Below are positions 241-63,809 of a stretch of DNA of 64,000 nucleotides, piece after piece. Position numbers and translations under genes: made by a program. Source of the DNA: an uncultured virus (IMG/VR IMGVR_UViG_3300020213_000033) (Duplodnaviria; Heunggongvirae; Uroviricota; Caudoviricetes); IMG/VR virus record IMGVR_UViG_3300020213_000033; one strand, 5' to 3'. The notes beneath the pieces were generated by a model that saw nothing but the letters and a program-made list of their open reading frames with translations, made no database searches and was not told the origin of the DNA. The number at the start of each line of letters is the position of its first letter. The stretch's first letter is position 1.

Positions 241-684
241 TTAGGGCCGGAGGCGGACATTCACCGGGGCCGCAGGGCTGGACCCCGGCCGCGTAAAAAG
301 GTTCGACCGCGCACTCTCCGGGCTCGTGCCAGCCGTGTTCGTGGCGGCCAAAGTCGATTCGTATGTCAACGTCCCAGAGAACGGCAGCGCGAACAGCGGC
401 CCGCCCGCCGTCTCCACGCGCACGCAATCGAGCGCCGGAGCCGCAGGGTCGTCCCAGCGTATTTGCGTCGGGTTGGCCTGCGTTCCGCTCACCGCCGCGC
501 GCGCCTGACCGCAGACCGCCTGTGACGCGGGAAACGCAAACGTGGTGATCGGCGCGGCCCCGCCCTGCGCGTAGATGCTGAGCCGGTAGTCCGTGACCGC
601 CTGCGCCTCAGCCTGAGACGACGCCAGCAGCGACAGCGAGAGCGAGAGCGTGACGAGTAGCGAGCGTGAGAGCCTTGACATCAT
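241..684 (-). CDS. Signal-peptide protein, beta-rich (possibly FN3/Ig-like); paralog of 63144..63590
   Basis: MMSRLSRSLLVTLSLSLSLLASSQAEAQA Sec-type leader; TLAATNTAGTSPES resembles an FN3 C-terminal strand. Confidence 0.75.
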   Translation of the reverse strand: MMSRLSRSLLVTLSLSLSLLASSQAEAQAVTDYRLSIYAQGGAAPITTFAFPASQAVCGQARAAVSGTQANPTQIRWDDPAAPALDCVRVETAGGPLFALPFSGTLTYESTLAATNTAGTSPESARSNLFTRPGSSPAAPVNVRLRP

Positions 685-3598: not shown

Positions 3599-3663
3599 CC
3601 ACGGCGCCGCCGGCTCGCCTGCGGAGAATCCCGCTCGACGTGTCCCAGCCAGCGGCGCCGTGG
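3599..3663 (-). other. Conserved intergenic stem-loop, copy A
   Basis: 17-bp outer stem (3599-3615/3647-3663) with inner hairpin; homolog at 63752..63809. Confidence 0.6.
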
Positions 3664-11900: not shown

Positions 11901-14900
11901 GAGCGTTCGCAGCCGTCCGAGGACGTTGCCGCGCTTCATCGTCATGGTCGGGAGGTAGTCCACTAGGTGGCCTATTTCGTGGGCGACGATCTGTGCCAAC
12001 TGCCCGACGTTCTCGGGCTTGAACAGGTCCGCGGTGAAGATCAGGTGCCCCGATCGGTGCTTCGCCCCCGACAGCGCGTTGCGGAACCCGCGCACTACGC
12101 GCACGTCGCGCGCAAGCTCGCGGGCGAACATCACCAGTTCCGGTAGTGCGACATCGCCCTGAATCGTCGCGAGTGGCGCCGCCTGACGCACTGGCACCAG
12201 CGCCACGGGCAGGCTCACACGCTGGCTGGGATTCCTCTGGGCGAACACGCCGATGGCCGCGTCTTCGGACGTGCCGGTCGTGGCGCCGCCAGTGTCTTCG
12301 ACATCTGAGGCGAGCGTCTGGCTCTTGACGTCGAGGCTCAGCAACGCGGCCAGCCGCTTCTGTTCGATGACGAGTTCGGCCATGCGGGCCGTCTTCCCGA
12401 ACGGCTCCGCCAGCAACGCCGCCACGTCGGCGCTCTTCTTCTGCGCCTCTTGCAATTCGTTTTCGAGCGAGTCGATCCGTTCCTCGACGCGGTGCTTCAC
12501 CGAGAACTCAATCGACCGCACGGTGTCGCCGGTGTCTTCGCGGTGGCTGCCTGTGCCGTAGTACACCGATAGGATGTTCACTGTCGTGCCGCCCGAGCCT
12601 TCGCCCCTGTATCGCCTGGCGCTGATGTTCAGCCCGGCGTAGGTGGCGATGACGCGGGCGACCTGGGGCGCGCTGTCGGTGGCCTTGACAAACGCCTTGT
12701 CAGCCTCGTCTCGTTTGTCGAACGTCGTGCCGCCAATCGTCATGGTGAACGTGTCCGGGATCTTGCGGGCGGCGAGGATCGCTTTGACGCCGGCCAGCGT
12801 CCGCGTGATTCCCTCGATACGTTCCGGGAGGTCGCTGGCCTCCCGCTGGGTGAGCCACCGTTCCCGCTTGTGCGCGGATTCCAGCAACTCGAGCTTCCGC
12901 AACTCGGCATCGACTTTCACCTTGTCGATCACCATTGGATTGCCGGACGCCAGCGCCTTCACTTCGGCATAGGTGAGCGCGCCGCCATCAACGTCGTCGG
13001 CCCTGCGGACCGTGATGTCTCCGCGCATGGCCTGCTCAATGAACCTGGCTTTGCTCTCGAGGGTTTGCCACGAGTAGGCGTCAAAGGACTCCTTGGTGAC
13101 ATAGCGGAGCACTTCGACCTCGAAGCCCTCTGGGTCGGCGTCGTAGAACTCGTTGCCCTGGCGGATGATCCGCCCCTCGCGCTGTTCAATGTCTGACGGG
13201 CGCCACGGCACGTCGAGATGGTGGAGCGCGACGAGCTTCTTCTGCGCGTTCATGCCGGCGCCCATCTTCTCGGTCGACCCGATGAGGATACGGACCTCGC
13301 CCGTGTTGACCTTCTCGACCATCGCGAGCTTGTCGTCGTCGCTCTTGGCGTCGTGGATGAACGCGATCTGGTCGCGCGGGATACCGTCGCGAACGAGCCG
13401 ATCGCGCAAGTCGGCGTAGAGGTTGAAGCTTTTCCCCTTCTTCTTTCCTGGCGTGCCTTGATCTAGGAACACGAGCTGGGCGCCCTTGCGGCGCGTGTTC
13501 GCCTTGTAAATGTCCGAGATGCGCGTGACGGCCGCACGCACCTTCGTGGACGCCTCGAGCGGCGAGCCCAGGCCGAGTAGCCGCATGTCGAGCGCCGCCT
13601 TGCGCCCGTCCCCTGTGACCATCAGCATATTGTCGTCTTTGGCATCGGGCTTCGCTGGCGTGAAGGTCAGTCCGTTGACCGTGACCGGTTCTCCGCGGAG
13701 CGCCGCCGCACGCACGACAAGGCTCTGCATCAGCCGCTTCATGGCGGCGCTCGGCTCCACGGCGACCACTTCCGGCGTGCCGCCCTTGATTCTCGGCGTG
13801 GGAAGTTTGACGTCCTTGGCCGTGACGATGTCCCACACCTGCCGGAACATGGTGAGCAGCTCGGGGAGGTTCGAGAACTGGGCGAAGCGGGTGCGCGAGC
13901 GGTAGCCGGTGCCCTCGGGGGCGAGTTCCTGTGACACCACGACCGACCCGTACTGCTGTGCCCAGGCGTCGAAGTGCGCCATGCCCGACGCGCGCATGTC
14001 GTCCGGCTGCAGGTACCGCTGCATCGTGAACATTTCGGCCATCGTGTTGCTCAGCGGCGTGCCGGTCGCGAACACGGTGCGGCCCTTGAGGCGCTGGATG
14101 TGCAGCACCTTCAAGCGCATGTCGAAGGCGCGATCGGAGCCCGTGGTCGGCAGGCCGGCGATGCGCGTCATCTTCGTGGCGAATTGGAGGTTTTTGAACA
14201 TGTGCGCTTCGTCGACGAAGAGGCTGTCCACGCCCAGTTCCTCGAACGTCAGCGTCTTGTCCTGGTCCTCTACGTCTCGCTGGTCGCGGATCTGCGCCTC
14301 GAGGTTCTTCTTCGCCTTCTCCATCTGCTTCACGCTCGCCGACTTCTTTCCGGTGGCGGCCGCTGCGTCGGCGATGGCGCTCTCGTACTCTGCGATCTGG
14401 TCCTTCAAGTAGTCGTTGAACGCCTCGTCTGAGATCGGCAGGAACTCGAACGACCGATGGGCCACGATGACGGCGTCCCAATCGCCGGTGGCGATGCGCG
14501 ACATGAAGCGTTGGCGTTGCCCGCCCGCGAAATCGGCCTTGGTGGCCACGAGCACGTTGGCCGTGGGATACATCCGCAGCACTTCCGCGCCCCAATACGA
14601 CACAAGGTGGTTCGGCACCACAATCATCGGCTTCCGGGACATCCCCAGCCGGCGCAACTCGATAGCCGCGCCGATCATCTCGAATGTCTTCCCGGCGCCG
14701 ACGACGTGACCGAGTCCCGTGTTGGCGGACTGCAGCACGCGCCAGATCGCGGTCTTCTGGTGCGGTCGCAGCGTCAACTCGGCGGACATCCCGGGCAACT
14801 GCAAGTGCGACCCGTCGTAGGACCGCAGCCGGAGGTTGTTGAAGTCGCGGTTGTAGATGTCCGCGAGCATGGTGGCGCGAGCGGTGTCCTTCCAGATCCA

Positions 14901-17900
14901 CTTGGCGAACTCGTCTTTGATGGCCTGCTGTTTCTCCCGCGCGGCCACGGTGCGTTCCTGGTTGACCGACGATTTCCCTTCGCCGTCCTTCTGGTAGATG
15001 GTCGGCAGCTTGAGATTCATGGCCTCTTCGATCAGCGTGTGGCCGAGGATCTCCGGGGTGCCCCACCTGGTTTCATTGGCGGCGGTGTTCTTGGTGCCCT
15101 TGGCGTAGGTCGGGTCGACTTTCCACGCCGCCAGCGGGGCGGCATAGGTGATGCGGAAGCCGTCTCTACGGACTTCGAGGAGTTCTGTCACGAACTGGCT
15201 GTAGACCTCGGGGGGAACCCAGGCCGACCCGAGCCGCACGTCGATGTCCACCGGCGCGAGGTCCGTCGGCTGCACCGCGGTGAGCGCGCTGACGTTCGCC
15301 TGGAACTTCTTGGGGTCGATCTTTGCCGCGGCCTCGGCCTCGGCCAACTTCTGCCGCACGGGGCCAGACAGGTAGTCGTCGGCCGTCAGCCACACGCCGC
15401 CAGGCGTCTGGTAGATGATCCCCGCCAGCGCATCCGCAACCGTGTCTTCTGACTGACTGGTCAACCGCGCCATCAACGACAGGTCGACGCGCCCGGTGTT
15501 GTTCAGCGAGACAAGGAGGGCCTCCTTTGGCGACTCGGCCGACGTGACGTCCTTCCGGGGCGACAGCGTGCGCCTGGTAAAGATAGCGGCCTTGGTCGGC
15601 GGCTTCCCCTGGCCGTGGGTCTTCTCGAGGGACATCAGCAGCGGAAGATCCGGGTCTTCGTCGAACGCCTCTTCATTGGCACGGTCGTTCAGGTGCCCGA
15701 ACTTCTTGACGAAGGCGTCGTAGACCGTGTTCAGCGTCTTCTGCGCGGCAACGATCGCGCTGTCGGTGGCCTCGGGCGAGAGCATGGCGCGCATGGTGGA
15801 CCTCGCCGCCCCGCGCACGCCCATCATGCCGACGATCCGCGCCTTGGTGGCGTCGGGGAGGTCGTCTACCGACTCCATCTCGTCGCCACGCTTCACCCAC
15901 AGCCGGCCATCCTGCTGGACGAAGGCATTTTGCTTGACGAACTCCGGGGCCGGCACCGACTCGCGGCGGGCGTCTTCAGTGGCGGCCTTGGTCGGCGTTT
16001 CGTCGTAGGTGATGGCGTTGGCTGGCAATCGGTTCAGCGCCGCGCGGAGATCGGCCTCGAAGTCGCCCCCCTCGTGCTTCACGTTGTAGCCGCCGCCGCG
16101 CCACATCTTGGCGTCGGCGGTGTGGAGGCCCACGACCATCCTGGGGTGCGCCACGTAGTACTCGTTGATCTTGATCGGTTGGCCGCTGTTGGGGTCTTCG
16201 ACGCCGCTCTCGGCCAACCGTGTGAATGCTTCCCCCTTCGCAGGAAGGTCCGCGGTGCGCCGACGCAGGAAGAGGATGTCAGTGACGACTTCCGTGCCCG
16301 CGTTCGCCTTGAACGCGGAGTCTGGGAGTCGCACCGCGCCGATCAGGTCCGCGTGCGTGGCGAGATAGTCGCGGACAGTCGCATGTTCGGCCGTGTTGCC
16401 GTCCATCGTGTAGCGCGACGTGATGAACGCCACGAGCCCGCCAGGGCGCGTCTTGTCGAGCGCCTTGGCGAAGAAGTAGTTGTGAATGGACGACCTGAGC
16501 GCCTTGGGCCTGCCGCGGAACGCCGAGTCATGGACGGCATAGTCCCCGAACGGCACATTGCTGATGATGAGGTCGAAAAAGCCGTCCGGGAGCCGGGCGG
16601 ACTCGAATCCGCGCGCCTGCACGTCCGTCTCGGGGTACAACACCTTGGCGATGCGGGCGGTGATGGTGTCGAGCTCCACACCGCCGCGCAGCGTGGACGC
16701 GCGCAGCGCATCCGGCATCGCCCCGTAGAAGTTGCCGACGCCCATCGACGGCTCGAGCACGCGGCCACTGGTGATGCCGAGCCGTTCCACGGCGGCCCAC
16801 ATAGCGCGCACGACCGGGACCGACGTGTAGTGCGCGTTCGGCGTGGACGCGCGAGCGGCGCCGTATTCCTCGTCGGCGCCGTATTCCTCGTCGGTCAGCG
16901 CCTCTTGGAGCGCCGTGTACGTCTTGGTGCCGTAGTGGAACGCCTCATTGAGCCCGCCCCAGCCGACGTACTGGGCGAGGATCGTCTGTTCGTCTGGCGT
17001 GGCGTCGCGGCGCTCGGCCTCGATCTGCTTCAGTAGCGCGATTGCCGCCAGGTTATTGCGGATCTTGACCGAGGGCGTGCCGGCGCCGACCGCTTCGTCG
17101 TCGGCTATTCGGTAGTCGGTTCCAGCGGTCCCTCGTACGGCGTCAGATCCTCGGGGTCGGCCGGCGTCATCGTGTACGCCGCCAATTCCCTCGCCTGATC
17201 CGGGCTCATCCCCGCTTGTAGTGCGTCCACGCGGATCTGGCGGGCCATCTCCTTGGCCTGCGGGCTCATCGGCGGCGGCGGCGGTATCTTCGCGGGCTGC
17301 GTCATTGGGTGCCTCTCCCTGAGTCTGCGCCTGCGGGCCGAGATCCGCAAGGGTGGGCTCGGCCACGCCGTGGACCATCCCCCAGGCCATCGTGAACGCC
17401 CGGCGAGCCTGCGCCGCAAGCGCGCCGAGATCCTCCTGGAAGTTCTCCCAGCCTTCTTGTGCGTCGATGATCCCGGCCTTGGTGTAGGCGCGCACGAGCT
17501 TGACCGTCTGCACCAAGAGCACGTCAGAGGGGACCGGCAGGCCGCTGCTCAGCGTCGAGCCCGACTTGCGAAGCTCGGCCTTGATGCCGGCGACGGCGGA
17601 GTCAATCTCGCCCTGCACCGCGGCGCGGCGCGCGGCGCGCGCGGCGGCCTTGGCGTCGACGGCCGGCGCGGCGGCGGCGGCGTCTGGCGCCCTGGCGGGC
17701 GTGATCTGCGGCGTGACCGGCTTCTTCTCCGCGAGCGCGGCCTTGCTGGCGGCCTGCGACTCGGCGCGGCTCGTGGCGATGCGCTGCTGCGCGCCGGCTT
17801 CCTCGGCGAGGTCGGCGCGCGTGTCGACCACGGACGGATGCACCTTCAGCAGCGTCCAGTCGGTCGCCCGGCTCGAGGACCGTGGCGTCGGTCCAGTTCT

Positions 17901-20900
17901 GGATGTCCCGCCGCGCGTCGGCGCCAGCGCCACCGCTTCGGTCTGCCGCACGCCGTTCTCGACGTACGAGCGCACGCCGCGCTCATCCTCGTAGATGGTC
18001 TGCCCAACCGCGTTGGTGCCGATTGCGTCCCAGGCCGTGGGGGGCTTTCCCGTCTTGCTCGGCGTCTTCGCGGCCTCCCTCGGCTGCTCCGGCACGAGTT
18101 TGCCGTCGCGCCATGCGGGTTCGACCTGCGCGGCGCCGAGTTTGACCTGCCGGCCCCCGCCGTTGTCGGGCTCGAACACCAAGACGCGCGTGAAGCTCCC
18201 GCTGTCCACGCGCAGGACGACGCCTGCACCGATGGCGCCGGCCCTGGCGCGCACCGCGCCGAGTTCCTCAACAGCGTTCGCCCACCAGTCCATTTCGGCG
18301 CCGGGCGACATCTTCGCCGCATGGCCCCACGTCGTGGCGGGACCGCCGACCGCGACCGTGGTCGTCTCGTCAGATCCGAACAGCGGTTTGATGATCAGCT
18401 CGACCGGCGCGTCCTGTGACGACACGGGACGCTCGGCGGGCGCGGGCGGCGCGGCCGGCGCGGGCGTGACGTTCAGTGCGCGTTCAGCCCGCGCCCGTCG
18501 GTCCTTCGCCTTGGAATACCAGGTCTTGGAGGGGCCGAACCATCGGAACCCCTCCCGTTTGAGCGCCGCCCGCACCGTCTCGTCCGGCTTGCCGTCGAAC
18601 TTGAGTTCTATCGACGCGCGTTCCGTGTTGTCCCGGATCTGAACCTCAGTCCCGCGGGCAATCGCAAACGGCGCCCAGACGCCAGGGGCCGTGGTGGCGT
18701 CCGTGGGCGCGACGTCAGGCGCGGCTGGGGCCGCGTCTCCGTCGAAGCTGATGTCGCCCTTGCCGGGGTCGACGCTGTCGTTGGCGAAGCCTGCATCCGG
18801 GTCCGCCTCGGGCCGCTGGCGATTCTTCCACCACGCGGTCGCGGGAGTGACGCCGAGCGCCGTGAGCGACGGCGTGGGCTTGGTCACGCCCTTGATCTGG
18901 ACCGTTCTGATGAACTCGAGAATGTCGTCGGTCGTCTCGATCTGATTGAAGCGGCCATCGCCGCGCAACTGGTCGAGCATGTCGTCGAGCGCGAGGCCAC
19001 GCTTCGGGTCGATCGAGAGCACGCCCCTGACGCCGCCGACCGCCCCGAACGCCTGCCCCTGACGGAGCCGGAACAGCTCCTCGACCTGTCCGCCCTGCTT
19101 CTCGTGGAGGCCGCCCAGGGCCGCGATTTCCTTGAGCAGCACCAGCGGGCCGGCGTCGGCGGCATCCTTCGCCTCGTCCCAGGCTCGCGTTTCGCGGAAG
19201 TCGTACTCGTCCCGCAGGTCCGTCTCGTCGACGTCCGGGTCCACGGCGCGTGCCGACGCAAGCACCTCCGCCCATTGCGTCTCGGCGGGGTCAGCCTTGG
19301 GCTCGCGCGTCTTCCGCGGCGGGCCCCCTTTGGTAGGCTTCGCGACCGGCGCCTCGGCCTCCGCTTCCCGCGTCAACCGGGCGCGAATCTCGGCCGCCAT
19401 TTCCTCGTCAGTCATCTCCGCGGCGGGCTTGGGGTCCGGCACTGGCGCAGGGGTGCTCTCGGCCAGCGCCGGCTCGAACGGCTTGAGGGACATCGCGTCT
19501 ACCCAGGTCGATGCTCCTGATGTTCTCGTCGGGGACGCAAACTGCAGCTTCGCCTTACCATCAGCGATCTGTGCCACCGTCGCCGCGCCGTGGCGCGTCG
19601 TGACCCGTGTGCCGACCTTGACCTTCAGCGCGGGCGTCTCCGCTTGGTTCGGTGTCGCTGACGCGGCGGCATCGCGCGCCACGGTGATCCGCTTGATGCG
19701 CTGTCGGATCTCTTTCAGGGTCGCAGTCGACGCCCCTGACCGCATTGCGTCCTGTTCTTCTTGGAGCACCGCCAACAGGTCGGTGGTCGTCTCCGAGGGG
19801 GCCTTGGACGTAGTGGCCGCGGTCGGAACCGCATCCACCCGCCCCTCGACAAGCTCCTGGTTGACGGACCAGCGACGACCGTCGAGCGTGACCTGAAGAC
19901 CGGAGAAGGGATCGGCCGCGGCCCGAGCCACGGTGACGATACGGCCATCCACGAGCTTGAGGGTGTCGCCCGCCTTCCAGTCCTCCCAGCGTGTGTCGTC
20001 CTCGTAGGACTGGCGCGGGATGGGCTCCTGCGCCTCTATCTCTTGGCCTCGCGCGTCGATGCCGAGGTCAGGACGTTCCCGGTCCAGGACTTCAGGACGT
20101 GTGCCCGCGACACGTTGGCGGTCTTCCGGCGCGGCGTCGAGCACTTCCGGAGTCGTCGCCTCTCTCGGCGGGGCCTCCGCTCGCGTGGCCGTCCGCATCG
20201 ACGCCACATCCGCCTGCCGCGCAGGGTTCTCCATGAACTCCGTGCCAAGCGCCACGAGCCCTTCTGGGCTCATCGGGTCAGCGATGGCTGGGGCGACAAG
20301 GCCGCGGGGCTGTTGACGCCGCTCCACGGCAGGCGTGCCCGTCCGGAGCGCCTCCTGCACCTCGGGCAGCGTCATCGCCGCCACGCGTTCAGGCGCATAG
20401 CCGAGCGCCGTCAACTGCTGCGTCTGTTCGGCGCTCACCCCTGGCGGCAGCGGCCCGAGGGCGTCGCGCATCGTCGCGGGCGGTGCCTCTGCGGCTGGCG
20501 CCGGCTGCGTGAGCGTGTAGGTGCCCGCCTGCGCCGTCGGAGTGACAAGCCCTTCGCGCTCGAGCTGGTCGATCGCGGCGCCTGCCTCACGCGGGCGCAT
20601 GGCCGTGGCGCTGCTCACATCGTTGATGCTGATCGTGGTGCGGCCGGGCTCGGCCATCAGCCGGCGCACGTTGCGCGTCTCTAGGTCGGTCGGCACGTAC
20701 GCGGGCGGCGCTCCGCGTGGAGCCACCGGCGGCACGTCGACGGGAGCGGGTGACGGGCCGGCCGGCGGCGCCTCTGATGCGAGGTCGGCCAGGGGCGGCG
20801 CTGGCGGGGCGCCGGCGGCCGTGCGAGGACGGCGGATGTTCGCGCCGCCGCCCATCACAGCACCGGAAAACAGGCCGAGCACGGCGGACTCGTCCACGCC

Positions 20901-22382
20901 TTCAAGGATCGGTCGGTCCTGAGCGACGTTCGCCAAGAGCTGTTCGGAGATCGACTGCGGCAGCTCTTCGAGGACACCTTCCTGCACCATGCCGAGCGCC
21001 ACACGCGTAGCCAGCCCACGAGCGGCGACAGGACTGGCCGCACCAGCGGCGATCATGGTGTCGATGTCGGCGATACCGAGCGACTGCGCGATGCGATTGC
21101 CGAGCAGGCCGAATGTGGTCGTCGCCGCGCCTGTCGCGACGGCGAGGGCGGACTGCTTCACCGTGAGACGGCCATCCTCGGAACCTTCCCTGGTGTGTGA
21201 AGCCGCGCTCCCGGCAGAGGCGATGCCCTCCCCGAGCGCGCCACGTACACCGGCACTCGCGTACGGAATAGCGCGACCGATAGCCCCCCCTGCCAGCATC
21301 ATGGGCGCCGACTCGACAACCGTGTTTGCGACCACGCCGGGGTTCGAGAGTGCGGCCACGGCGGTAGCGAGCACACCATCAGCCGCCTGCACGGCCGCGC
21401 TGCCCTCGCGCTGCTTCTTGGAATACCAGGACGAGAGGATCTTCGTGGCCTCGGCGGGGCGGAAGCCGATCGTCTCTTCGAGGAACTGACCCACACGACC
21501 GCCGGTCGCGATGTCCGCCAATCCCACCGGCACATTCACAGCGCCGATGGCACCCTTCACCGCGCTGATGACTGGGTCAACGCCAAGGCGACGCGGCAAG
21601 GACATGCCGAAGTCCGCCAACGTCCCCAGGGCGCCACGGGGCTCTGGGGCGCGGCTGATGCCCGTCGCCTGGCCCATGATGTCGCCCATCGACTTGGCGG
21701 CGCTCGGCTCCTGGGTCGCGTCGAGACGGGCCGCCGCGTCCGGTTCCCAGCCCAGGCGCACGAGATCGTCTCGAGACGCGCGGGGCGTGCCAGGCACGCG
21801 CGCGCCGGTGCGGGTATTGAAGCCGCCCACGACCTCGTTGGGGTGTCCGGGCTTCTTGAACGCCGATGGCCAGTGGCCGTCCGGCCCTGGCTCGGCGCCG
21901 GCCGCGAAGGCGGCGCGGTAGTCGTAGGACTGCTCGGGGGCGTCGGGGTTGGGGTCGAGGCCGAGCGTCTTGGCGCGCTGGCCGTACCACGCCTGGAACG
22001 TCGGCTCGTCTACACCAGCAGCAGGTAGAGCGCGGCGAGGATCGTCGGCACGAGTCGGCCCGGAAGGCAGCGCGGCATCTAGCGAGAGTGTATCAGTGTC
22101 CTCTTCGATGGTGAGCCCCATCGATCGAGCCACATCGAACGGGTCGGGGTCTGGCGTGTCCTCTTCGATGGTGAGTCCCATCGTCCTGGCCACATCAAAC
22201 GGGTCCACACGCGGCGTCCGCGCCGCAGGCCGCGGCGTCGGCGGGCGCATCTCAGCCGTGCCAGCCAGGATCGACTGGCGTTGCCAGTCCTGGTCGTGCG
22301 TCTCAAGCGTCGGCGTGTCGTCTTCGACGGCGAGTCCCATCGATCGAGCCACGTCGAACGGGTCAAGTGGGCGGGTCGGCAT
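8928..22382 (-). CDS. Giant DarB-like polyvalent protein (N6-adenine MTase + SNF2-like helicase + HExxH zincin + LPD38-like C-terminus), probably injected
   Basis: [11 protein letters not shown] and ISNVPFG (MTase); [33 protein letters not shown] (helicase); AHEIGH (~11970); last gene of ejection module. Confidence 0.9.
17105..17305 (-). CDS. Candidate nested 66-aa gene in +1 frame inside giant protein
   Basis: GGGAGAGG 6 nt before ATG 17305; [44 protein letters not shown]. Confidence 0.45.
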
Positions 22383-31128: not shown

Positions 31129-32385
31129 CTAGCTCTGGATCCGCACGGCGAGTTCGGGGCGCACTGCGGCCCAGCCGTACAGGATGTCGAGACGCGCCGG
31201 GGACTGGTCGGTCATGACGTCGTACGCCTTGATGAAGCGGACGCTCATGGCGATGGCCGCGTTGCTGATGCGCTTGCTCACCCACACCCCCTGCGGCAGG
31301 GGGAGGTCCGCCATCACGCACGTGAAGGCGTTCGGGTCATACACCAGGCCGGTGCGCGTGACCTTGTTCGCGTGCGTCGAGGCGTGGCCGAAGATCGTGA
31401 TGATCGCGTTGTCCGCCGGGCGACCCGTGGCGGTCGAGTAGGCGTTGCTCGCGCCATAGACCAGCGGGGGCGAGAACGGGATCGTCGCGTTGCCGCTGCC
31501 GTCGGAGAAGACGTCGGCGCTCACCACGTAGTCCTTGAGCCGCCCGGTGGACTGGTACGACATCGGGTTGATGTCGAAGACGCCGTCGAACTGGATGACG
31601 TCGCCTTCGTTCAGGCGCTTGGCCGCGGCGGCGGTCCAGCCGTCCGTGACGAGCGACGTCACGCCGGAGGCGGCGCCGGCCGCGCCCGCCGCCACGTTGA
31701 CCAAGGGGGTCCCGCCGAGTGGGCCGACCACGTGCGTCGGCGCGTTCTCGTCGATGTACCACTCCTTGATGCCCAGCACTTCGCCGGCAATCTTGCCGGT
31801 GCGGTACTGCTTGGAGATCACGGCGCCGGGATTGAACAACGCCAGATTGGCGTTCGCCAGCGACGCGTGCATCTGCGCGGTGAGAATCGCCACGAGACGG
31901 CCGGTCGGGACCGAGCCTTCCGTGAGCTTCACGGTCGCATCGAGGTAGGACGCGTTGGTCGTGGGGACCACGGCAGGCGTGCCCACCGTGCGGAACACGC
32001 GCTTGTACATCCGCTGCAGCCCGTCGAGGTCCATCTGATTGCCGAGTGCTTCCACGGCCGGGTCGATGTAGCGTTCGGTGTAGTTGTCCACTTCCATCCG
32101 GAGGCTGGCCGAGCTGAACTCGATGCCGACGTTCGCCTGATCGGTGAGGGTGATCGGGACCACTTCTTCGTTGGCGCTGACGGGGTTGAGCGCCTGGCCT
32201 TTGTTGACCATGTAACGCTGCGGCAGACGCGCGTTCACGGTATAGCCCACCTTGGCGCCGGAGATCGTGTACTGGCTGTCGTAGCCCCGCGTCACGTTGG
32301 CGGCAAAGCGGAGCGTGTTGGTGAGACGCTGCGTGACTTTCTTGATGACCCAGGACGGCGTCACCAGGCTGTTCGATACGGACAT
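31129..32385 (-). CDS. Major capsid protein, P22 coat family
   Basis: KVGYTVNARLPQRY; ERYIDPAVEALGNQMD; RLDILYGWAAVRPELAVRI. Confidence 0.95.
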   Translation of the reverse strand: MSVSNSLVTPSWVIKKVTQRLTNTLRFAANVTRGYDSQYTISGAKVGYTVNARLPQRYMVNKGQALNPVSANEEVVPITLTDQANVGIEFSSASLRMEVDNYTERYIDPAVEALGNQMDLDGLQRMYKRVFRTVGTPAVVPTTNASYLDATVKLTEGSVPTGRLVAILTAQMHASLANANLALFNPGAVISKQYRTGKIAGEVLGIKEWYIDENAPTHVVGPLGGTPLVNVAAGAAGAASGVTSLVTDGWTAAAAKRLNEGDVIQFDGVFDINPMSYQSTGRLKDYVVSADVFSDGSGNATIPFSPPLVYGASNAYSTATGRPADNAIITIFGHASTHANKVTRTGLVYDPNAFTCVMADLPLPQGVWVSKRISNAAIAMSVRFIKAYDVMTDQSPARLDILYGWAAVRPELAVRIQS

Positions 32386-36984: not shown

Positions 36985-37229
36985 CAGTCGCGTAGCCGCA
37001 CCGCGAACTCGGGCTGCATCTTGGCCCAGCCGTACAGGACGTCGACACGCGCGGCGTGCCGGTCGGTCACGACGTCATACGCCTTGAGGAACCGCACGGA
37101 AAAGGCGAGCGGCTCGAAGACGAGCGGCGGCGGGGCGACGGGGATCTGGACGGTGGCCACGCCGAGGACGGCCAGTCCGAGTGCCGCGATGAAGTGCCGC
37201 CGCTTGATGCCGTTCTCGAGTGGGGCCAT
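36984..37229 (-). CDS. 81-aa twin-arginine-leader protein fused to a copy of the capsid C-terminus
   Basis: KRRHFIAALGLAVLGVA; SVRFLKAYDVVTDRHAARVDVLYGWAKMQPEFAVRL matches coat C-terminus; GAGG RBS. Confidence 0.75.
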   Translation of the reverse strand: MAPLENGIKRRHFIAALGLAVLGVATVQIPVAPPPLVFEPLAFSVRFLKAYDVVTDRHAARVDVLYGWAKMQPEFAVRLRD

Positions 37230-37247: not shown

Positions 37248-37322
37248 TGGTTGCAGGAGCGGGAATTGAACCCGCGGCTTCCAGGTTATGAGCCTGGCGC
37301 TCTGCCACTGAGCTACCCTGCG
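37248..37322 (-). tRNA. tRNA with CAU anticodon (Met/fMet-like), encoded CCA
   Basis: CGCAGGGTAGCTCAGTGGCAGAGCGCCAGGCT-CAT-AACCTGGAAGCCGCGGGTTCAATTCCCGCTCCTGCAACCA folds as a cloverleaf. Confidence 0.95.
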
Positions 37323-43263: not shown

Positions 43264-43611
43264 TCATGGCGTCGGCGTAGCCTTCGGTGTGATCGTCGGC
43301 TGTGGGAAGAGCCCACCACAGAATGGGCAGTCGATCGCGCCCCGCTCAGCGCGTAGGATCTGCGCCACGGCGTCGTCGGCACTCGTGGGTCTCCTGAGTT
43401 TCGGCCTCACGCCTTGCAGAAATGCACACGCCACAATTCCATCGGCCCAATCCTCCACATCAGGGAGGGGCTCGGCCCGCCCCGCGTCCACGTCGAGGGG
43501 CACGGCAGTGGTGAGTGCGGCGATGGCTACGGTCAGCGCCTCGCGGAGCGTCAAGTAGTACTCATCGGGCCAGTTGCCCTTGATTGCGGCGATGGCTTGC
43601 TCTGGGGTCAT
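43264..43611 (-). CDS. Hypothetical protein
   Basis: ATGA-coupled; C-terminal CPFC. Confidence 0.65.
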   Translation of the reverse strand: MTPEQAIAAIKGNWPDEYYLTLREALTVAIAALTTAVPLDVDAGRAEPLPDVEDWADGIVACAFLQGVRPKLRRPTSADDAVAQILRAERGAIDCPFCGGLFPQPTITPKATPTP

Positions 43612-43808
43612 GACGTGGCCTTTGGTGTGTAGCCCAGCCGGCAGCCGTCATCGGGAGTGACGTGCGAATCTACCGCGATGGACTGGCTATTGCGGCACAG
43701 GCCGCGAGAGGATGGCCCGAGCTTCTCGAAGTGCGCGCACGTCCCGCAGGTGCCGGCGCTCAGCGCGTCGTCGAGTGCGCGTAGGATGTCGCCTGTGATA
43801 GTCGTCAT
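43608..43808 (-). CDS. Small 4-Cys protein
   Basis: CGTCAHF...CRN...DDGC. Confidence 0.6.
   Translation of the reverse strand: MTTITGDILRALDDALSAGTCGTCAHFEKLGPSSRGLCRNSQSIAVDSHVTPDDGCRLGYTPKATS
43627..43790. repeat. 164-bp perfect direct repeat, copy 1
   Basis: Identical to 44189..44352 by base-by-base comparison. Confidence 0.97.
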
Positions 43809-44173
43809 GGCTTCTTGGTCCAGGTGAACTGCACGCCTACCTGTTGCATGCCGGCGTTGAGCGCGGCGACGCGGGCGGTGTCGTCGACGTGACCGATGTA
43901 AGGCTTGTCATTGATGCTGTAGTGGTCCAGCAGGCCACCCTTGTGGATTCCCATCACACGGCGGAGCCGGGGGGTTAACACCTGGGGGGCAAGATCCGCA
44001 AGTATATACTTCTCTTCTATGTCCGCATCCGTCAGTCCCTCCGCCCGACAGAGCAGCCCGATGCAGCACATCTTGCCTTCCGGGGTGCGGAGTTGGTAAA
44101 GATCACGCTTCCCTCGATGCCAGACGTCATCGGGGAGATCTACCACGAGGGGGGCGAGAGGGGGGTTGGTCAT
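43805..44173 (-). CDS. Hypothetical protein between direct repeats
   Basis: GKMCCIGLLC...IND motif; ATGA overlaps. Confidence 0.7.
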   Translation of the reverse strand: MTNPPLAPLVVDLPDDVWHRGKRDLYQLRTPEGKMCCIGLLCRAEGLTDADIEEKYILADLAPQVLTPRLRRVMGIHKGGLLDHYSINDKPYIGHVDDTARVAALNAGMQQVGVQFTWTKKP

Positions 44174-44460
44174 GGTGTCTCCTTCGCCGTGTAGCCCAGC
44201 CGGCAGCCGTCATCGGGAGTGACGTGCGAATCTACCGCGATGGACTGGCTATTGCGGCACAGGCCGCGAGAGGATGGCCCGAGCTTCTCGAAGTGCGCGC
44301 ACGTCCCGCAGGTGCCGGCGCTCAGCGCGTCGTCGAGTGCGCGTAGGATGTCACTCGCGCGAGCGTTCGCTAACAGTCTCGCATTGGGCTCCCATTTCGC
44401 CACGCTGTCGCGTAGGTAGCGCAGCACCACGTGTGGAGAGGCGTCATCGGGGGTCGTCAT
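44170..44460 (-). CDS. 4-Cys protein sharing its C-terminal half with 43608..43808
   Basis: GAGGAG RBS; identical 54-codon segment. Confidence 0.65.
   Translation of the reverse strand: MTTPDDASPHVVLRYLRDSVAKWEPNARLLANARASDILRALDDALSAGTCGTCAHFEKLGPSSRGLCRNSQSIAVDSHVTPDDGCRLGYTAKETP
44189..44352. repeat. 164-bp perfect direct repeat, copy 2
   Basis: Identical to 43627..43790. Confidence 0.97.
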
Positions 44461-48300: not shown

Positions 48301-48538
48301 ATCGGGGGCTGCGTGTCGGCGCGCTTGGCCGCCGCCGTAGCCAGTACTTCCACTTGAAGGCGGCCCTGGTCCAGCGTGTGCCGCGCCGCGCCGCCTTCTG
48401 CTGGATGCGATGCTGCCGGGCGCTCAGGCCCAAGCGACGACGCGTCATGCGCGCCGAGTCCGGCGAGCATCGGTAGGTTCGGCCACCGTCTGATTGCCGT
48501 AGCCAGTACTTCCGGTCCGGCGTCGGGTTGTCGAACAT
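48275..48538 (-). CDS. Small basic hypothetical protein
   Basis: TGATG overlap with upstream gene. Confidence 0.45.
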   Translation of the reverse strand: MFDNPTPDRKYWLRQSDGGRTYRCSPDSARMTRRRLGLSARQHRIQQKAARRGTRWTRAAFKWKYWLRRRPSAPTRSPRFDRTINRQ

Positions 48539-49119
48539 CAGGGCCGCCAGAGCGCCACGCTCACCTTGTCGCCGCGCTGCACGCTGTAGCCAGGGATGGT
48601 GAGGGTCGCCGCGCCGAAGTAGAACGGCTGCAAGATCCCGTCGATGACGCTTGTGGCCACGTCGACGTCGCCGAGCCGATACCGATCGGTCACGGTGGCG
48701 TCGAAGGCCACCGCCGGAGGCGGGAGCCGCAGGCGCGGGTCCGCCGGCACGGTCGGCAGGAGCAGGTTGAAAATGGCCGGTGCCGAGCAGTCACCGTTGC
48801 CGTCACACGCCACCATCGCGTAGGCGTTCTGCGCCTGCCGAGACACGATCACGCCGCTGGCGGTGCCGAGTAGCTCGCAGTCCATCGCCGCGTTGCGCGG
48901 GTCTTCAATCCGCAGGCCCGGCGAGCTCGACACGCCGCCCCTGGCCAAGCCGCACGACATGCTCGACGCCAGGAACGTGCTCGTCGACACGGGAAGCGGT
49001 AGTGTGCGCGTCAGTCGATACGACGTGGGGAGCGGCACGCCGGGCAGCGGCTGCGCCTGCGCGGGGCGCGCCGCGAAGAGTACGAGACAGACGATCGCGA
49101 TGATGGCGAGGATTCTCAT
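48538..49119 (-). CDS. Signal-peptide protein, distant paralog of 241..684
   Basis: MRILAIIAIVCLVLFAARPAQAQ; shared YRL...TF.AS...CG.AR...R..DP...A.DC...P...RLR pattern. Confidence 0.75.
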   Translation of the reverse strand: MRILAIIAIVCLVLFAARPAQAQPLPGVPLPTSYRLTRTLPLPVSTSTFLASSMSCGLARGGVSSSPGLRIEDPRNAAMDCELLGTASGVIVSRQAQNAYAMVACDGNGDCSAPAIFNLLLPTVPADPRLRLPPPAVAFDATVTDRYRLGDVDVATSVIDGILQPFYFGAATLTIPGYSVQRGDKVSVALWRP

Positions 49120-55589: not shown

Positions 55590-58349
55590 CTAGCGCCGGC
55601 CACGCCGGTGGTGTAGGGCGCTGTCGATGAGCGCGCCGGCGGCGCCGCTGGTCAGCGTGGCCGCGTTGAACGGCACGCGGAGACGCTTCAGGAACTCCAT
55701 CTGCTTCGTGCTCGCGGGGTTCCCCTTCCAGCGCGCGGTGCGGCTCTTCATTTTCGCGACGCTGCCGCGCTGCTCGGTCACGTAGGACTCGCCGAGCATC
55801 ACGGCCGTGGCGAGGTTGGCGATCTGTGACGCGATGGTGCGCTGGCGTAGGGCCGTCGCATCCGCCGCGCGTGGGTGGAACTCCACGGCGACGTCCCAGT
55901 GGCCCAGCATGTCCTGAGACACCCGCACCGTCTCGTGGCCGTCGCTCCACGGGTAGTTCAGGCGGTAGACTTCCCCGGCGCGCATCCAGTCCAGGTGCGT
56001 CGCTTGGAGCACGCTGGGGTCCAAGGGCTGCACGTCGAAGACGTTGACCTCGACCAACCGCGAGCGGAGCTGGTCGAGGTCGGTGAGGCTCGAGAGTATG
56101 GCATCGAGATCCACGCCTGCGTGCTCGTCGCGCAGCGCCGCGATGTCCGCCTCGAGCACGTCGAGCCGCTGCCCCTTCGCGTTGATGAGCGGCGGCAGGC
56201 CGTAGAGCACCGGCGCGGCCATCAGACTGTGCTTCCGGCTGATGTCGACCATGTCGAGGATCAGGCAGTCGTCTTTGCCGGGGAACAGGCGCAGGCCGCG
56301 GCCGGTCATCTGGGTATAGAGCGTGGCGCTCTTCGTCGGTTTCAGGTGGAGGATGCACGACGTGCGCGGCAGGTCGGTGCCCTCGGTCAACAACATGGCG
56401 TTGAAGAGGCCATCGATCTGGCCCTCGGTGTACTGGCGCAGTAGCCTCCGGCGGTCGTCGTCCGGGGTCTGGCCGCTGATGGGCAGGAAGCGATGGCCCG
56501 CCTTCTGCCACAGGTCGGCCGCGGCGTGCGCGTGGGCGACGTCCACGGTGAACCCGAGCGTGGGGCGTCCCAGCGCGTGCTGTTGCCACGCCAGGAGCGC
56601 CTGGGCGTTGCGCTGCGGCGTGTTGACGGCCGTCGCTAGGTCCTTCTGGTTGAACTCGCCTGCGGTCGTCCGGACGGCTTCAAGGCTCGCGTCGGTGGCG
56701 ACCGCCAGCGCCCGGGGCGGGGCCAGCCACGCATCCTTGATGGCCGCCTTCATCGGATAGGAAAAAGCGATCGTTTGGAACACGACCGACAGCCCGACCG
56801 CGTCCGTCCTGTTGGGCGTGGCGGTGAAGCCCACCAGGAGCCGGTCCTGGGGCGCCACGGCGTCCCAGGCGTTCATCCGGGCCGCAATGGCCTCGGTGCG
56901 CTTCGTGCTCGACAACAGCGAGTCTAGGGGGGCCACGCCGCCGTGGTCTGGGAGGAAGCCCAGGACGGCGAGCACGCGCCGGTAGCTATCGGCCGAGGCG
57001 TGGTGGCAGTTCGACACGAAGATGCCGTTTGCGGCATACGTGTGGAAGTCTTCTACTTCGAGATTGTAGACAAGACCGTCCGCACACACGCCGCCAAATC
57101 GGCCGTCACTTCCTGGTTCGAGAACCTCAAGATCGTCCACCCGAGCCCAGCGAGACACGCGCCCTTTTTCGAGTCTTGCGCCTGTCGTGATTTCGCCCCG
57201 TGACTCGGGCCGTCTACTTCGATCCCGATCAGCATCGGCCTGTTGGCGATGTCGATCTTGTAATTCGTCGGGTAGATGCCCCCCCTCGGCTCCCTGGTCT
57301 TGACCACGACTTCTGTCTCCCAGCCGAGCGCCAGCGCCAGCGCGGCCTGCGGCAACGGGATCGGCTTCCCGTTGCCGCCACGCGACGTCGGCCTGTGGCC
57401 GATCTTGCGAAGTGACGCCTGCATCTTCTCGCGTGCCGAGGCCAGCCGCATCGGGTTGTTCCGCTTCATCCGCGCCGATGCGTGCTTCCGATTCGTCCGT
57501 GCCATCCGCGCCGACGACTCCTCTGATGTTGTCCTGTCCCTGCACTCGTCCGAACAGAAGGCCCGGCCGCTGCGCCTGAACGTGTCGATTCGGGCCTTCG
57601 TGTCCAACAGTTTCGGGGCGAGGCAGCGGCGACACTGGACGTGTGTTCCTATCTTGATTTTCATTTGGCGGCTCCGTGGTGACGGCGATGGTATCACTTC
57701 GTCGCAGATCCTCCGCGCGCACCCATCCGCGCATGGTCCAGATCCGGTGATTTGGAGTGCAATGCAGCGTCACGCCGTTGGATGCGCGCACGCGCACGAT
57801 ACCGGTCGGCGCTTTGCACATGAGGCGCACGACGCGCTTCTGCTCGATGACGCCGGTGCGCGGGCAGAACGCCGTGACCATCTCGCCTACGCGCACGGAC
57901 TCGATGGGCCGACCATCCACCAGCGTGCCGGCAGGGAAGCACTCGTCCACGATCACGAGCCCGAACTGCATGTGGACCAGGAGCCGGTGTAGCCGTCGCT
58001 GGTCGCGTGCGTCCAGGGTCTGGATACTGGCCACGATGACGTCGGAGTAGACGTTGGCGCATTCGTTTCCCTTTTCCTTCGTGACGATCAGGCCAGGGTT
58101 GTTCTGGCGGATACGCGTCACGGCTTGGGCGATCAGCTCCTCGCGGTGCGCGATGACGAGCATCTTGCGATGCTTCTGCGGCAGGGAGTCGAGCCAGGGG
58201 CCGAGCCGGGTGGGCAAGGACGAGAACACGGTCGTCTTGCCGACCCCGGTGGCCGCCTGGACCAGTACGCGGTTCTGGCCGGCGAGGCGTGCGGCGACGA
58301 TACTGTCGAGCATCTTCTCCTGGTAGGGCCGAAGTTCCTGGGACGCCAT
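55590..58349 (-). CDS. DExH-box SF2 helicase containing an intein
   Basis: ATGVGKT; IAHREEL; VIVDE-[intein]-CHH; GFTATPNR; LTEGTDLP; QMTGRGLR. Confidence 0.93.
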   Translation of the reverse strand: MASQELRPYQEKMLDSIVAARLAGQNRVLVQAATGVGKTTVFSSLPTRLGPWLDSLPQKHRKMLVIAHREELIAQAVTRIRQNNPGLIVTKEKGNECANVYSDVIVASIQTLDARDQRRLHRLLVHMQFGLVIVDECFPAGTLVDGRPIESVRVGEMVTAFCPRTGVIEQKRVVRLMCKAPTGIVRVRASNGVTLHCTPNHRIWTMRGWVRAEDLRRSDTIAVTTEPPNENQDRNTRPVSPLPRPETVGHEGPNRHVQAQRPGLLFGRVQGQDNIRGVVGADGTDESEARIGADEAEQPDAAGLGTREDAGVTSQDRPQADVAWRQREADPVAAGRAGAGARLGDRSRGQDQGAEGGHLPDELQDRHRQQADADRDRSRRPESRGEITTGARLEKGRVSRWARVDDLEVLEPGSDGRFGGVCADGLVYNLEVEDFHTYAANGIFVSNCHHASADSYRRVLAVLGFLPDHGGVAPLDSLLSSTKRTEAIAARMNAWDAVAPQDRLLVGFTATPNRTDAVGLSVVFQTIAFSYPMKAAIKDAWLAPPRALAVATDASLEAVRTTAGEFNQKDLATAVNTPQRNAQALLAWQQHALGRPTLGFTVDVAHAHAAADLWQKAGHRFLPISGQTPDDDRRRLLRQYTEGQIDGLFNAMLLTEGTDLPRTSCILHLKPTKSATLYTQMTGRGLRLFPGKDDCLILDMVDISRKHSLMAAPVLYGLPPLINAKGQRLDVLEADIAALRDEHAGVDLDAILSSLTDLDQLRSRLVEVNVFDVQPLDPSVLQATHLDWMRAGEVYRLNYPWSDGHETVRVSQDMLGHWDVAVEFHPRAADATALRQRTIASQIANLATAVMLGESYVTEQRGSVAKMKSRTARWKGNPASTKQMEFLKRLRVPFNAATLTSGAAGALIDSALHHRRGRR
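57009..57941 (-). mobile_element. Intein (311 aa) inserted in helicase Walker B
   Basis: Block A CFPAGTLV; block B LHCTPNHRIW; blocks F/G VYNLEVEDFHTYAANGIFVSN followed by +1 Cys. Confidence 0.93.
57053..57664 (-). CDS. DUF559/Vsr-like endonuclease nested in +1 frame within the intein
   Basis: GGAG 7 nt before ATG 57664; CRRC...FCSDEC; YKIDIA...IEVDGPSH...LGWTILRFSNQEV. Confidence 0.85.
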   Translation of the reverse strand: MKIKIGTHVQCRRCLAPKLLDTKARIDTFRRSGRAFCSDECRDRTTSEESSARMARTNRKHASARMKRNNPMRLASAREKMQASLRKIGHRPTSRGGNGKPIPLPQAALALALGWETEVVVKTREPRGGIYPTNYKIDIANRPMLIGIEVDGPSHGAKSRQAQDSKKGACLAGLGWTILRFSNQEVTADLAACVRTVLSTISK

Positions 58350-62049: not shown

Positions 62050-62691
62050 TTAACCCACTCCCATCACCATCAACCTCTTTGGGCCGCCGCCCGCCGCCTC
62101 GATGTAATTCATGATCGCTGCGTTGGCGGTATTCGCAGTGGCCGTGGTGAACGGGCCATCTGTCGTTTCCGCGCCGGTCGAGAGCTTGTATTGACGGAGG
62201 TGGCGGCCGAGTGTTTCTGCCCTCGTGAACCCGGCGCCTGCCACTGAGGTATCGATATCCGCAGCGAACGCCGCGCCCACGACAATGACGCCCGCGCCAG
62301 TGGTCGTGATCGACCCACACGTGTACGTCGTGACGGAGCTATTTGCCGCGTCGTTGGTCTGATCGAATGCGGTCCATGATGTGGCCGGAATCCACGCGTC
62401 AAGATAGCCGCTGAAGACGCTGTTGCCGCCATACGTGATCGTGATGACATGGCTCCCCGTCGTCGCCACGATCAGGCTATAGAGCCGGATGTGCTCTCCG
62501 GCCCCAGATCCGCGCTCTTGCCGGAACGTGAGCGCACCATCGAGATCACTCACCACGCTACTTGGTGTCCCGCCGTCGCGTTCGCGCAACGACAACGTGA
62601 CCAAATCCCCCACGACCAGCGACGCGAGTGTGCCGCTCGCCGTCGTGCCGAATCCCTGCGCGAAGGTCGTGCTCGTGCGAAGCGTCGCCAT
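62050..62691 (-). CDS. Thr/Gly-rich beta-type late protein
   Basis: GGGAG RBS; ends PKRLMVMGVG. Confidence 0.7.
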   Translation of the reverse strand: MATLRTSTTFAQGFGTTASGTLASLVVGDLVTLSLRERDGGTPSSVVSDLDGALTFRQERGSGAGEHIRLYSLIVATTGSHVITITYGGNSVFSGYLDAWIPATSWTAFDQTNDAANSSVTTYTCGSITTTGAGVIVVGAAFAADIDTSVAGAGFTRAETLGRHLRQYKLSTGAETTDGPFTTATANTANAAIMNYIEAAGGGPKRLMVMGVG

Positions 62692-63126
62692 CTATTGCTC
62701 CCTCACCGGGAGCGCCCGGTCCAAAAAGTAGCTTACTGGAATGGCTGACGGCGCTGGCGTGCGAATCCCCAGCAGCGCGTCTGCATTGCCATACTCAATC
62801 AATGTCGACGTGACCACGGGGTCTGCCGCCATGCCCCACTCCCCCGGCGCGTAGCCGAGGCGATAGATGGCTTTGCTAGTAGGGTTGAACGTCGGCCCAT
62901 CCTCGCGGACCCACCCGGCCATCTGCCCCGCGTCGCCCAATGTGTTCGCCACGGCGAGCCGCTCCGGTGGCACGAGCGCCGACACGACAGGCACGGGCGC
63001 GACGAGTGGGCCTGGCACCGTCACGGTGATCCGCGTGCCCACCGGCAGCGTCGTGACGGGGCCGTTGGTGTCGCACCGCATCGTGCGCCTGATGTCACCG
63101 TCCGCATACCCCGCTCTCACGCTCAC
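62692..63126 (-). CDS. ORF lacking a good start; probable -1 frameshift extension of 63144..63590
   Basis: Frame stays open back to the slippery site at 63207; homolog runs off window at position 1. Confidence 0.6.
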   Translation of the reverse strand: MSVRAGYADGDIRRTMRCDTNGPVTTLPVGTRITVTVPGPLVAPVPVVSALVPPERLAVANTLGDAGQMAGWVREDGPTFNPTSKAIYRLGYAPGEWGMAADPVVTSTLIEYGNADALLGIRTPAPSAIPVSYFLDRALPVREQ

Positions 63127-63143
63127 GACCGTGCAGGAGTAGG

Positions 63144-63590
63144 TCAGGGGCGTCGGAGCCGGAGGTTGCTCGGCGCAGGACGCACCGCCCCCGGACGCAC
63201 AAAAGGGTGACTGCGCGCACTCTCTGGAGAGACGCCAGCGCTACTGATGGCCGCGAGTGTCGAATCGTAGGTCAGCGTCAACGAGAAGGGAAGGGCGAAG
63301 AGGGGGCCACCGGCCGTCTCGTCCCGCACGCAATCGGTCGTGTCCCCAGCGTCTCGGAGGAATCGGATCTGCGTCGGGTTAGCCTGAGTGCCGCTGACCG
63401 CCAACACCGCCTGACCACAGAGCGCCTGCGCGGCAGGGAACGTGAACGTCGTGATCGGAGAGGCAGCGCCGAGGTTGTAGATCGACAGCCGGTAGTCCGT
63501 GACCGCCTGCGCCTCAGCCTGAGACGACGCCAGCAGCGACAGCGAGAGCAAGAGCGCGACGAGCAGCGATCGTGAGAGCCTTAACATCAT
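63144..63590 (-). CDS. Signal-peptide protein, paralog of 241..684
   Basis: Near-identical leader, diverged mature part. Confidence 0.75.
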   Translation of the reverse strand: MMLRLSRSLLVALLLSLSLLASSQAEAQAVTDYRLSIYNLGAASPITTFTFPAAQALCGQAVLAVSGTQANPTQIRFLRDAGDTTDCVRDETAGGPLFALPFSLTLTYDSTLAAISSAGVSPESARSHPFVRPGAVRPAPSNLRLRRP

Positions 63591-63741
63591 GCAGTGCCTC
63601 TTTCTGTTCCGACCATAACGTGCATCCGTAGTCCGCTGCCGTGACCACCATAATCATCGGCGCGTCGGGATTGCGGCACACCATCGCAGCGTAGTGTGTC
63701 GACCAATCCCAGTGCGTACAGTCGTTACACCGTCTCGCCAT
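63514..63741 (-). CDS. Small 4-Cys protein
   Basis: CNDCTHW...CRN...DYGC. Confidence 0.6.
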   Translation of the reverse strand: MARRCNDCTHWDWSTHYAAMVCRNPDAPMIMVVTAADYGCTLWSEQKEALHDVKALTIAARRALALAVAAGVVSG

Positions 63742-63751
63742 GATTCACGAC

Positions 63752-63809
63752 CGGCGCCGCCGACTCACCTGCGGAGACTCCCGCTCGATGTTCCCAGCCA
63801 GCGACGCCG
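63752..63809 (-). other. Conserved intergenic stem-loop, copy B
   Basis: Homolog of 3602..3660. Confidence 0.6.

Follow-up and report, generated by a model that had tools for sequence, protein, structure and literature searches.

A predicted -1 frameshift, conserved across a phage gene family, would give an exported protein two alternative ends

The stretch of DNA analysed here (hereafter ‘the window’; 64,000 nucleotides, IMG/VR IMGVR_UViG_3300020213_000033) makes up most of a 66,781-bp contig and represents a P22-like tailed phage, with genes for coat, portal, head-closure, terminase, DnaB and methylase proteins, coded on the minus strand; its host may lie in the Vicinamibacteria. Elsewhere in the window, a helicase gene (55590-58349, minus strand) contains an internal overlapping ORF and a sub-threshold match to an intein splicing domain (35.5 bits, against a cut-off of 35.8), and a 4484-aa ORF (8928-22382, minus strand), with three ~50-bp repeats near its start, sits in the position of a DNA-ejection or DarB-like protein. 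A direct repeat of 185 bp and 96% identity (43606-43790 and 44168-44352) spans the ends and starts of small early-type ORFs; a tRNA with a CAT anticodon (37248-37322, minus strand) is found between the terminase and portal regions, and the segment adjoining it (36996-37098) is similar, at 80%, to the 3' part that closes the coat gene (31141-31243).

The gene of interest, which is separate from the coat gene (31129-32385), is present as one copy at each end of the window (copy A, 684..241; copy B, 63590..63144), within an end repeat in which bases 1-826 match 62904-63732 at 84%:

241..684, minus strand: 0-frame ORF of copy A, 147 aa, 75% identical to copy B
63144..63590, minus strand: 0-frame ORF of copy B, 148 aa, with a signal peptide, a putative FN3-like domain and a C-terminal PxxPxxLR; the predicted short isoform
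63510..63590, minus strand: predicted Sec signal peptide, residues 1-27, with an AxA|Q cleavage motif, called from sequence features

Other, independent records of the same phage end at 673 and begin near 62334, and a single run contains both alleles, with three different upstream flanks. The simplest reading, and one that we regard as fairly probable, is a ring of ~62.9 kb with one cassette, two alleles of which were assembled at its ends; the two copies may represent alleles from co-assembled phages, rather than paralogues, with a true duplication of the gene being the alternative, and not the simplest reading. Both copies are preceded by a near-identical leader of ~140 bp (684-826 and 63590-63732), encoding a short CxxC-containing frame (MDRCKDCMHWDWSTHY..) that overlaps the start of the gene in the -1 frame.

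A profile search places the protein in a family with 330 representatives at 50% identity. We fetched 150 of these, most of them 130-150 aa in length, and aligned 92 of the shorter ones; across these 92 rows Phe130 is invariant and is preceded by Pro in 67, a hydrophobic core at the N-terminus and the AxA|Q motif are each found in 91/92, and a lipobox in 0/92. The frameshift gene has no family match in Pfam or PHROG and no match to a structural protein, neither ORF has a usable match in the ESM Atlas, and no match was returned by a locus search of viral contigs with the single copy B protein or by tblastn against GenBank phages; a scan of genome contigs gave 6 matches, 0 of them family members. 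Literature searches, incomplete in their coverage, found no description of the family, nor of a frameshift in a phage signal-peptide gene. In other phages the gene is neighboured by terminase, portal and lysis genes, and its position within the late region varies. Directly upstream of it, in one phage group (L017, L026, L063), sits a distantly related family that has the NP..WPDP..C motif in common with it; this family (the upstream ORFs of L017, L026 and L063, along with L033 and L165) is without the Pro-Phe site described below.

An AlphaFold model of the copy A protein (pLDDT 92.5) can be superposed on FN3 domains over residues 28-134, with a best Z of 6.5 and an rmsd of 2.3 for 70 residues. 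FN3 chains rank top in all three fold searches, with middling scores, no Foldseek E <0.001 and no match to the fn3 model of Pfam; with single-domain FN3 targets the match starts ~33 residues in, so that the order of the first strands is not matched, and, for the seven-strand order (A-G) of FN3, a Z of 6.5 falls below the level that would exclude a common arrangement. On the strength of the model, the constant part of the protein appears to be an FN3-like domain.

The same first domain is also found joined in frame to other C-termini:

48538..49104, minus strand: paralogue E, in which this first domain continues in frame into a second domain of another kind; the equivalent site reads C ATT TTC, and there is no nearby -1-frame Cys

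Fusions of this type number 7 among the 150 representatives fetched, with the attachment made after the PxxP segment, which is not replaced; this counts against the main reading given below. A homology between the -1 module of the window and the second domain of paralogue E, plausible by eye, was rejected (hhalign probability 0.6%, below 10/40 shuffles). Four family proteins (P0035, P0049, P0093, P0081) have longer in-frame C-termini; in P0081 an NPF runs directly into a Pro-rich linker and another domain, without a PxxP segment, and this protein is possibly a fixed form of the long isoform. Among family proteins <300 aa there is no in-frame copy of the -1 product.

Close to the end of the 0 frame, each copy carries a candidate slip site:

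63201..63207, minus strand: slippery heptamer C CCT TTT at Pro129-Phe130 of copy B, assigned by register and family conservation
295..301, minus strand: degenerate slippery site C CTT TTT of copy A, with the U_UUU tetramer kept

The original prediction proposed a -1 frameshift at these positions, and its description of copy B, a C CCT TTT heptamer at 63207..63201 followed by a 6-nt spacer, is accurate. For copy A, the C CTT TTT at 301..295 and the 6-nt spacer are likewise correct, whereas the label ‘canonical’ does not apply, as the heptamer is not X XXY YYZ. In a third allele, seen in three runs, CTT is replaced by TCT (giving C TCT TTT), with the T TTT and the Cys codon kept, among the differences listed; its protein is probably P0002. 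Full P-site re-pairing is not possible on the heptamers of copy A and the third allele. On the minus strand of the 64-kb window CCCTTTY has a single occurrence, at 63207; in 16 other genes of the window CCT accounts for 46/699 Pro codons and TTT for 26/324 Phe codons, and 0/17 Pro-Phe pairs use CCT.

Homologous DNA was collected by five degenerate-motif scans of viral contigs which, together with earlier searches, gave 213 loci, from which family members were kept by profile search. Repeats of the same protein were dropped (L064; L057, L167, L206; L050; L111; L175, L204, L211; L207), including those of copy A (L005-L007) and paralogue E (L008), as were L029, which is cut before the site, the weak matches L034 and the second ORF of L050, and, for want of the C-terminal motif, the distant neighbouring family (upstream ORFs of L017, L026 and L063; L033, L165). 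The final set comprises 17 distinct outside homologues, with a median pairwise identity of 37%. L102, a weak profile match, was found with a motif lying over the site, in which the first C was fixed but CCN and TTY were free; the other 16 rows, 15 of them slippery, were found by motifs upstream of the site, and were therefore not selected for it.

At the same Pro-Phe codons, 16/17 outside homologues read C CCT TTY (10 TTT, 6 TTC), spread over the whole tree; the one non-slippery homologue, L046, has G ACC TTC and is without the first -1 Cys. Where the slip-site residue is Pro, its codon is CCT in 17/17 rows (including copy B), compared with 18/210 Pro codons upstream. As the rows are related, we counted third-base changes on the tree, and found 0 at the slip Pro versus 2-9 at 15 other conserved four-fold columns; with one row for each 45%-identity cluster (5 representatives), the chance estimate is ~5e-6. 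Of 116 columns, the two richest in third-base T are the slip Pro and the codon that makes the -1 Cys. Saying this, the Phe is invariant and the Pro common for reasons of the protein, so these residues in themselves weaken the argument from the site; it is at the synonymous positions that the site has been kept across the family, which bears out the conservation in homologues that had been put forward as a check. As judged from sequence comparison, the slip site is held beyond what the protein needs.

Reading on in the -1 frame gives the following:

62692..63201, minus strand: -1-frame ORF of copy B, which adds 169 aa beyond the shift; the predicted long isoform would have 130 + 169 = 299 aa
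1..295, minus strand: -1-frame ORF of copy A, truncated where the window ends and complete in L005-L007
63175..63177, minus strand: conserved -1-frame Cys codon, from 0-frame CCT GCG; NNT + GC/GT in 18/18 slippery rows (the 16 outside rows together with copies A and B)

In both copies, as had been proposed, no stop interrupts the -1 frame from the site on into LTYSCTVVSVRAGY, and the isoform sizes given for copy B (148 aa for the short form, 299 aa for the predicted long form) agree with our computation; upstream of the site, the -1 frame of copy B is open for just 12 codons. Two finer details held up in part: of the linker said to have two Cys in both copies, one Cys is common to A and B (at +8/+9) and the second is not, and, whilst the synonymous changes CTA/CTG and TCA/TCC are present, the former is also merely a TAA/TGA swap of the stop.

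One sign of constraint on the -1 frame is this Cys, which lies 8-11 codons past the shift in 18/18 slippery rows, its T being drawn from codons for 7 different 0-frame amino acids, against a background of -1 Cys in 184/1843 upstream 5-codon windows. In several folds (L017, L173) the Cys-making T sits in a loop, so pairing does not explain it. A second Cys falls within the last 8 residues in 15/16 complete -1 ORFs, that is, in all but copy B. In 14/18 rows the 0 frame reaches its stop within 20 codons. Beyond that stop the -1 frame adds 16-21 aa (11 rows), 44-49 aa (3 rows), 107 aa (L102) or 150 aa (copy B), the -1 ORFs of L169 and copy A being truncated where their sequences end; the post-stop tails have a hydrophobic fraction of 0.38 in the -1 frame, versus 0.17 and 0.20 in the other frames. 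Taken together, these patterns indicate that the -1 frame is under a coding constraint of its own. Guesses at DUF families for the longer tails (L102, L182, L200, L192) gave no Pfam match over the cut-off and were rejected, and the loss of a 7-nt repeat, breaking an in-frame fusion, was dropped as an explanation when the family-wide site appeared.

The extension in the window is longer than those of most homologues, and has two recognisable parts:

63013..63144, minus strand: two-Cys beta module TYSC..YADGD..RCDTNGP..TVP, found in frame in other signal-peptide proteins (L001-L004, P0166)
62692..62946, minus strand: C-terminal ~80 aa of a secreted beta-helix protein, with a ~450-aa core deleted in frame and the junction near 62945

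Identity between the module (TYSC...RCDTNGP...TVP) and the C-terminal portion of the L001-L004 signal-peptide protein is 66-68%, and in P0166, a 673-aa protein with weak beta-helix matches, the module follows a signal peptide in frame. For the remainder of the downstream ORF (ORF C), the match is to the final 73 aa of P0166, with 78% identity; ORF C is thus a P0166-like sequence from which ~450 aa have been deleted in frame. In its in-frame settings the module is exported, and we infer that here only a frameshift could supply it with a signal peptide; the distal part of the extension, as a deletion product, may be passenger sequence. An AlphaFold model of the -1 extension, built on only 5 sequences, is unusable (pLDDT 37.7). 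Past its stop, the third allele goes on into the same module in diverged form, and the part covered (the differences listed and one 30-letter end) contains no GTG. A 59-bp segment, 90% identical, occurs at 3602-3660 and 63752-63809 and also in L001, L005, L007 and P0166; it matches the last part of a small Zn-ribbon-like ORF (..ERDSPQxSRRRR), located ahead of signal-peptide genes in several related phages, and may be a shared junction for cassette exchange.

Candidate stimulators flank the site on both sides:

63159..63194, minus strand: GC hairpin of copy B, 6 nt after the heptamer, -20.7 kcal/mol; a possible stimulator, not family-conserved
264..288, minus strand: hairpin of copy A, 6 nt after the site, -16.1 kcal/mol
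316..319, minus strand: GGAG, an SD-like element of copy A whose end lies 14 nt upstream of the heptamer; not present in copy B

The two hairpins can indeed be found where the original prediction placed them, but a role as a conserved stimulator is not supported. When trimmed to those ends they give z of -2.2 (B) and -1.8 (A), as against -0.43 and 0.00 in 51-nt windows; unless so trimmed, they are unremarkable for the local GC content. Across 20 rows the folds downstream do not exceed shuffles in stability (mean z of -0.43 for 50 nt and of -0.12 for 70 nt), RNAalifold returned 0 consensus pairs in 18 rows, and the tRNA was the sole Rfam match. Hairpins starting 5-10 nt downstream average -17.7 kcal/mol versus -12.6 upstream, in a comparison unmatched for composition. 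An SD-like element is found ~7-16 nt upstream in 14/18 rows, with an anti-SD duplex of -6 kcal/mol or better in 14/18 rows versus 21/180 control windows, a signal that overlaps a conserved (P/G)ES protein motif; copy B, with a duplex of -3.3, has no such element. Internal SD elements act 9-14 nt upstream (PMC5009743).

Synthesising these findings, we consider it very probable that a programmed -1 ribosomal frameshift is conserved across this phage gene family, and that the gene most likely makes two proteins with a shared front and different ends; the reading put forward in the original prediction is supported by the family-wide C CCT TTY and by constraint on the -1 frame, with the trans-frame product itself being predicted. 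In the model we propose, most ribosomes would complete the 0 frame, giving a short form of ~140-150 aa that ends in PxxPxxLR, whilst a minority would slip back by one base, with tRNA-Pro and tRNA-Phe moving in tandem on C CCU UUY; at the two degenerate sites, of copy A and of the third allele, slippage would probably take place via the U_UUU tetramer alone, and at a lower rate. The upstream SD-like element and local 3' hairpins may assist the slip. In E. coli, C_CC.U_UU.Y heptamers and U_UU.Y tetramers are shift-prone, with H_HH.U_UU.Y heptamers being among the most efficient and U_UU.Y tetramers shifting with a stimulator (PMC4066793). The long form would keep the signal peptide and the domain up to Phe130, lose the last ~17 residues, and gain an interchangeable module, probably closed by a disulphide, which in most phages would be a ~20-aa beta-hairpin, in others 45-50 aa or >100 aa, and here 150 aa. 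Both forms, we suggest, would leave the infected or lysogenic cell by export, with the efficiency of slippage determining their ratio.

As to function, the role that we find most likely, at about even odds, is that of a constant scaffold on which, in the minority form, a variable binding module would be presented in the cell envelope. We also entertain, as a doubtful idea, that the frameshift controls assembly of an exported fibre, in which short forms would chain by donating the PxxPxxLR segment (which we take to resemble the first strand of FN3) and the long form, having lost this segment and gained a phage-specific module closed by a disulphide, would act as a cap, showing a swappable tip; the efficiency of slippage would then set fibre length, and recoding would, if this were true, be a length and tip switch for a secreted polymer.

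Among the alternatives to a working frameshift, the one that fares best is that the family signal is real, yet the shift is decaying in this particular phage, with weakened sites and an extension that is the relic of a deleted beta-helix gene. The degenerate heptamers in 2/3 local alleles, the in-frame deletion relative to P0166 and the poor model of the extension (pLDDT 37.7, on 5 sequences) all fit with decay; set against this, T TTT and the -1 Cys are preserved in all three alleles, as are the openness of the -1 frame and, directly after the stop, a homologous two-Cys module (diverged in the third allele), and ORF C, the members of which differ by substitutions only, is intact in L005-L007. 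We regard decay as unlikely, though deserving of some weight.

Much less likely still is that the downstream ORF is a separate gene, starting from GTG 63126 or from a non-AUG codon over the stop (CTGA in copy B), with the heptamer a by-product of Pro-Phe. Gene callers do start ORF C at a GTG or ATG (the P0004 cluster, 10 members), the CTG overlapping the TGA stop of copy B resembles an ATGA junction, and in L161 and L088 a -1 ATG sits exactly at the stop of the 0 frame. The competing outcome named by the original prediction was an independent start at GTG 63126, codon 26 and the first ATG/GTG/TTG in the -1 frame of copy B; it cannot explain the family, as in 4/18 slippery rows the -1 frame is devoid of ATG/GTG/TTG and the conserved Cys precedes the first start codon in 18/18. 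The conserved TYxC start of the window domain is also upstream of 63126, copy A and the third allele have CTAA rather than CTGA, and the third allele has a GTC near the GTG codon. A separate gene would, furthermore, leave CCT in 17/17 rows unexplained and make most of the tails into 20-aa genes.

Recoding at the CCC-stop that ends the 0 frame (CCC TAA/TGA), instead of at the heptamer, is highly improbable. Both copies in the window end in this way, 41/148 family proteins end in Pro, and the E-type fusions retain the entire 0-frame end; CCC_UGA is, moreover, a known shift site in Listeria phages (PMC5009743). Known CCC-stop shifts are, however, +1, and in this gene the +1 frame runs for 15 codons before it closes; 0/17 outside homologues end in a CCC-stop, and the conserved -1 Cys lies upstream of the stop. 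Least credible of all is that the fusion arises from the T run by slippage during transcription or by a phase switch at the DNA level: 11 outside rows, along with copies A and B, do have runs of 4-5 T at the site, but 6 rows have C CCT TTC with three T only, the C triplet is conserved too, and no indels are seen in 4/4 runs (in contigs, from which rare variants are dropped).

To our knowledge, nearly all documented phage frameshifts are in tail chaperone, capsid or tail genes. The gene described here shares with the tail assembly chaperone G/GT (lambda type) an X XXY YYZ near the end of the 0 frame, conservation at the codon level and two products with a common N-terminus; in contrast, it has a signal peptide and no Pfam or PHROG match, it sits in a podovirus-type genome, and its neighbours are lysis, portal or terminase genes, not the tail tube or tape measure, so we do not place it in the chaperone class. 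Of 2476 joined genes in SEA-PHAGES, 2397 are tail chaperones and 79 are hypothetical (PMC10885494). Another parallel is offered by the Ig-like domains that frameshifting adds to the coat or tail proteins of phages T3, A2, A118, A500 and PSA (PMC5009743): there too, a mobile C-terminal module is appended to part of the pool, and the module also occurs in frame elsewhere. Here, by contrast, the constant part is apparently FN3-like and exported rather than a virion shell or tube protein, which sets it outside that class, and the appended module varies between phages, replaces a conserved C-terminal segment and draws a Cys from the overlap of the two frames. The -1 cassettes of E. coli dnaX and the IS3 family combine an SD-like element, a shift motif and a 3' stem-loop (PMC5009743 and PMC4066793). 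With these the present family shares a U_UUY-based motif and, as candidate stimulators, the SD-like element of 14/18 rows and local 3' hairpins; it is without conserved 3' structure and differs in gene type and product logic.

If the frameshift is used as we predict, standard gene calling misses the long form in this family and calls its tail as a start-less ORF; and the loci described here offer a natural allelic series (full, two degenerate, loss, and in-frame fusion) for the poorly sampled C_CCU_UUY and U_UUY signals. In each gene, 17-20 codons would be read in two frames, both under selection. What is new, finally, is a widespread and unannotated phage gene family in which the shift would swap the end of an exported protein for interchangeable modules.
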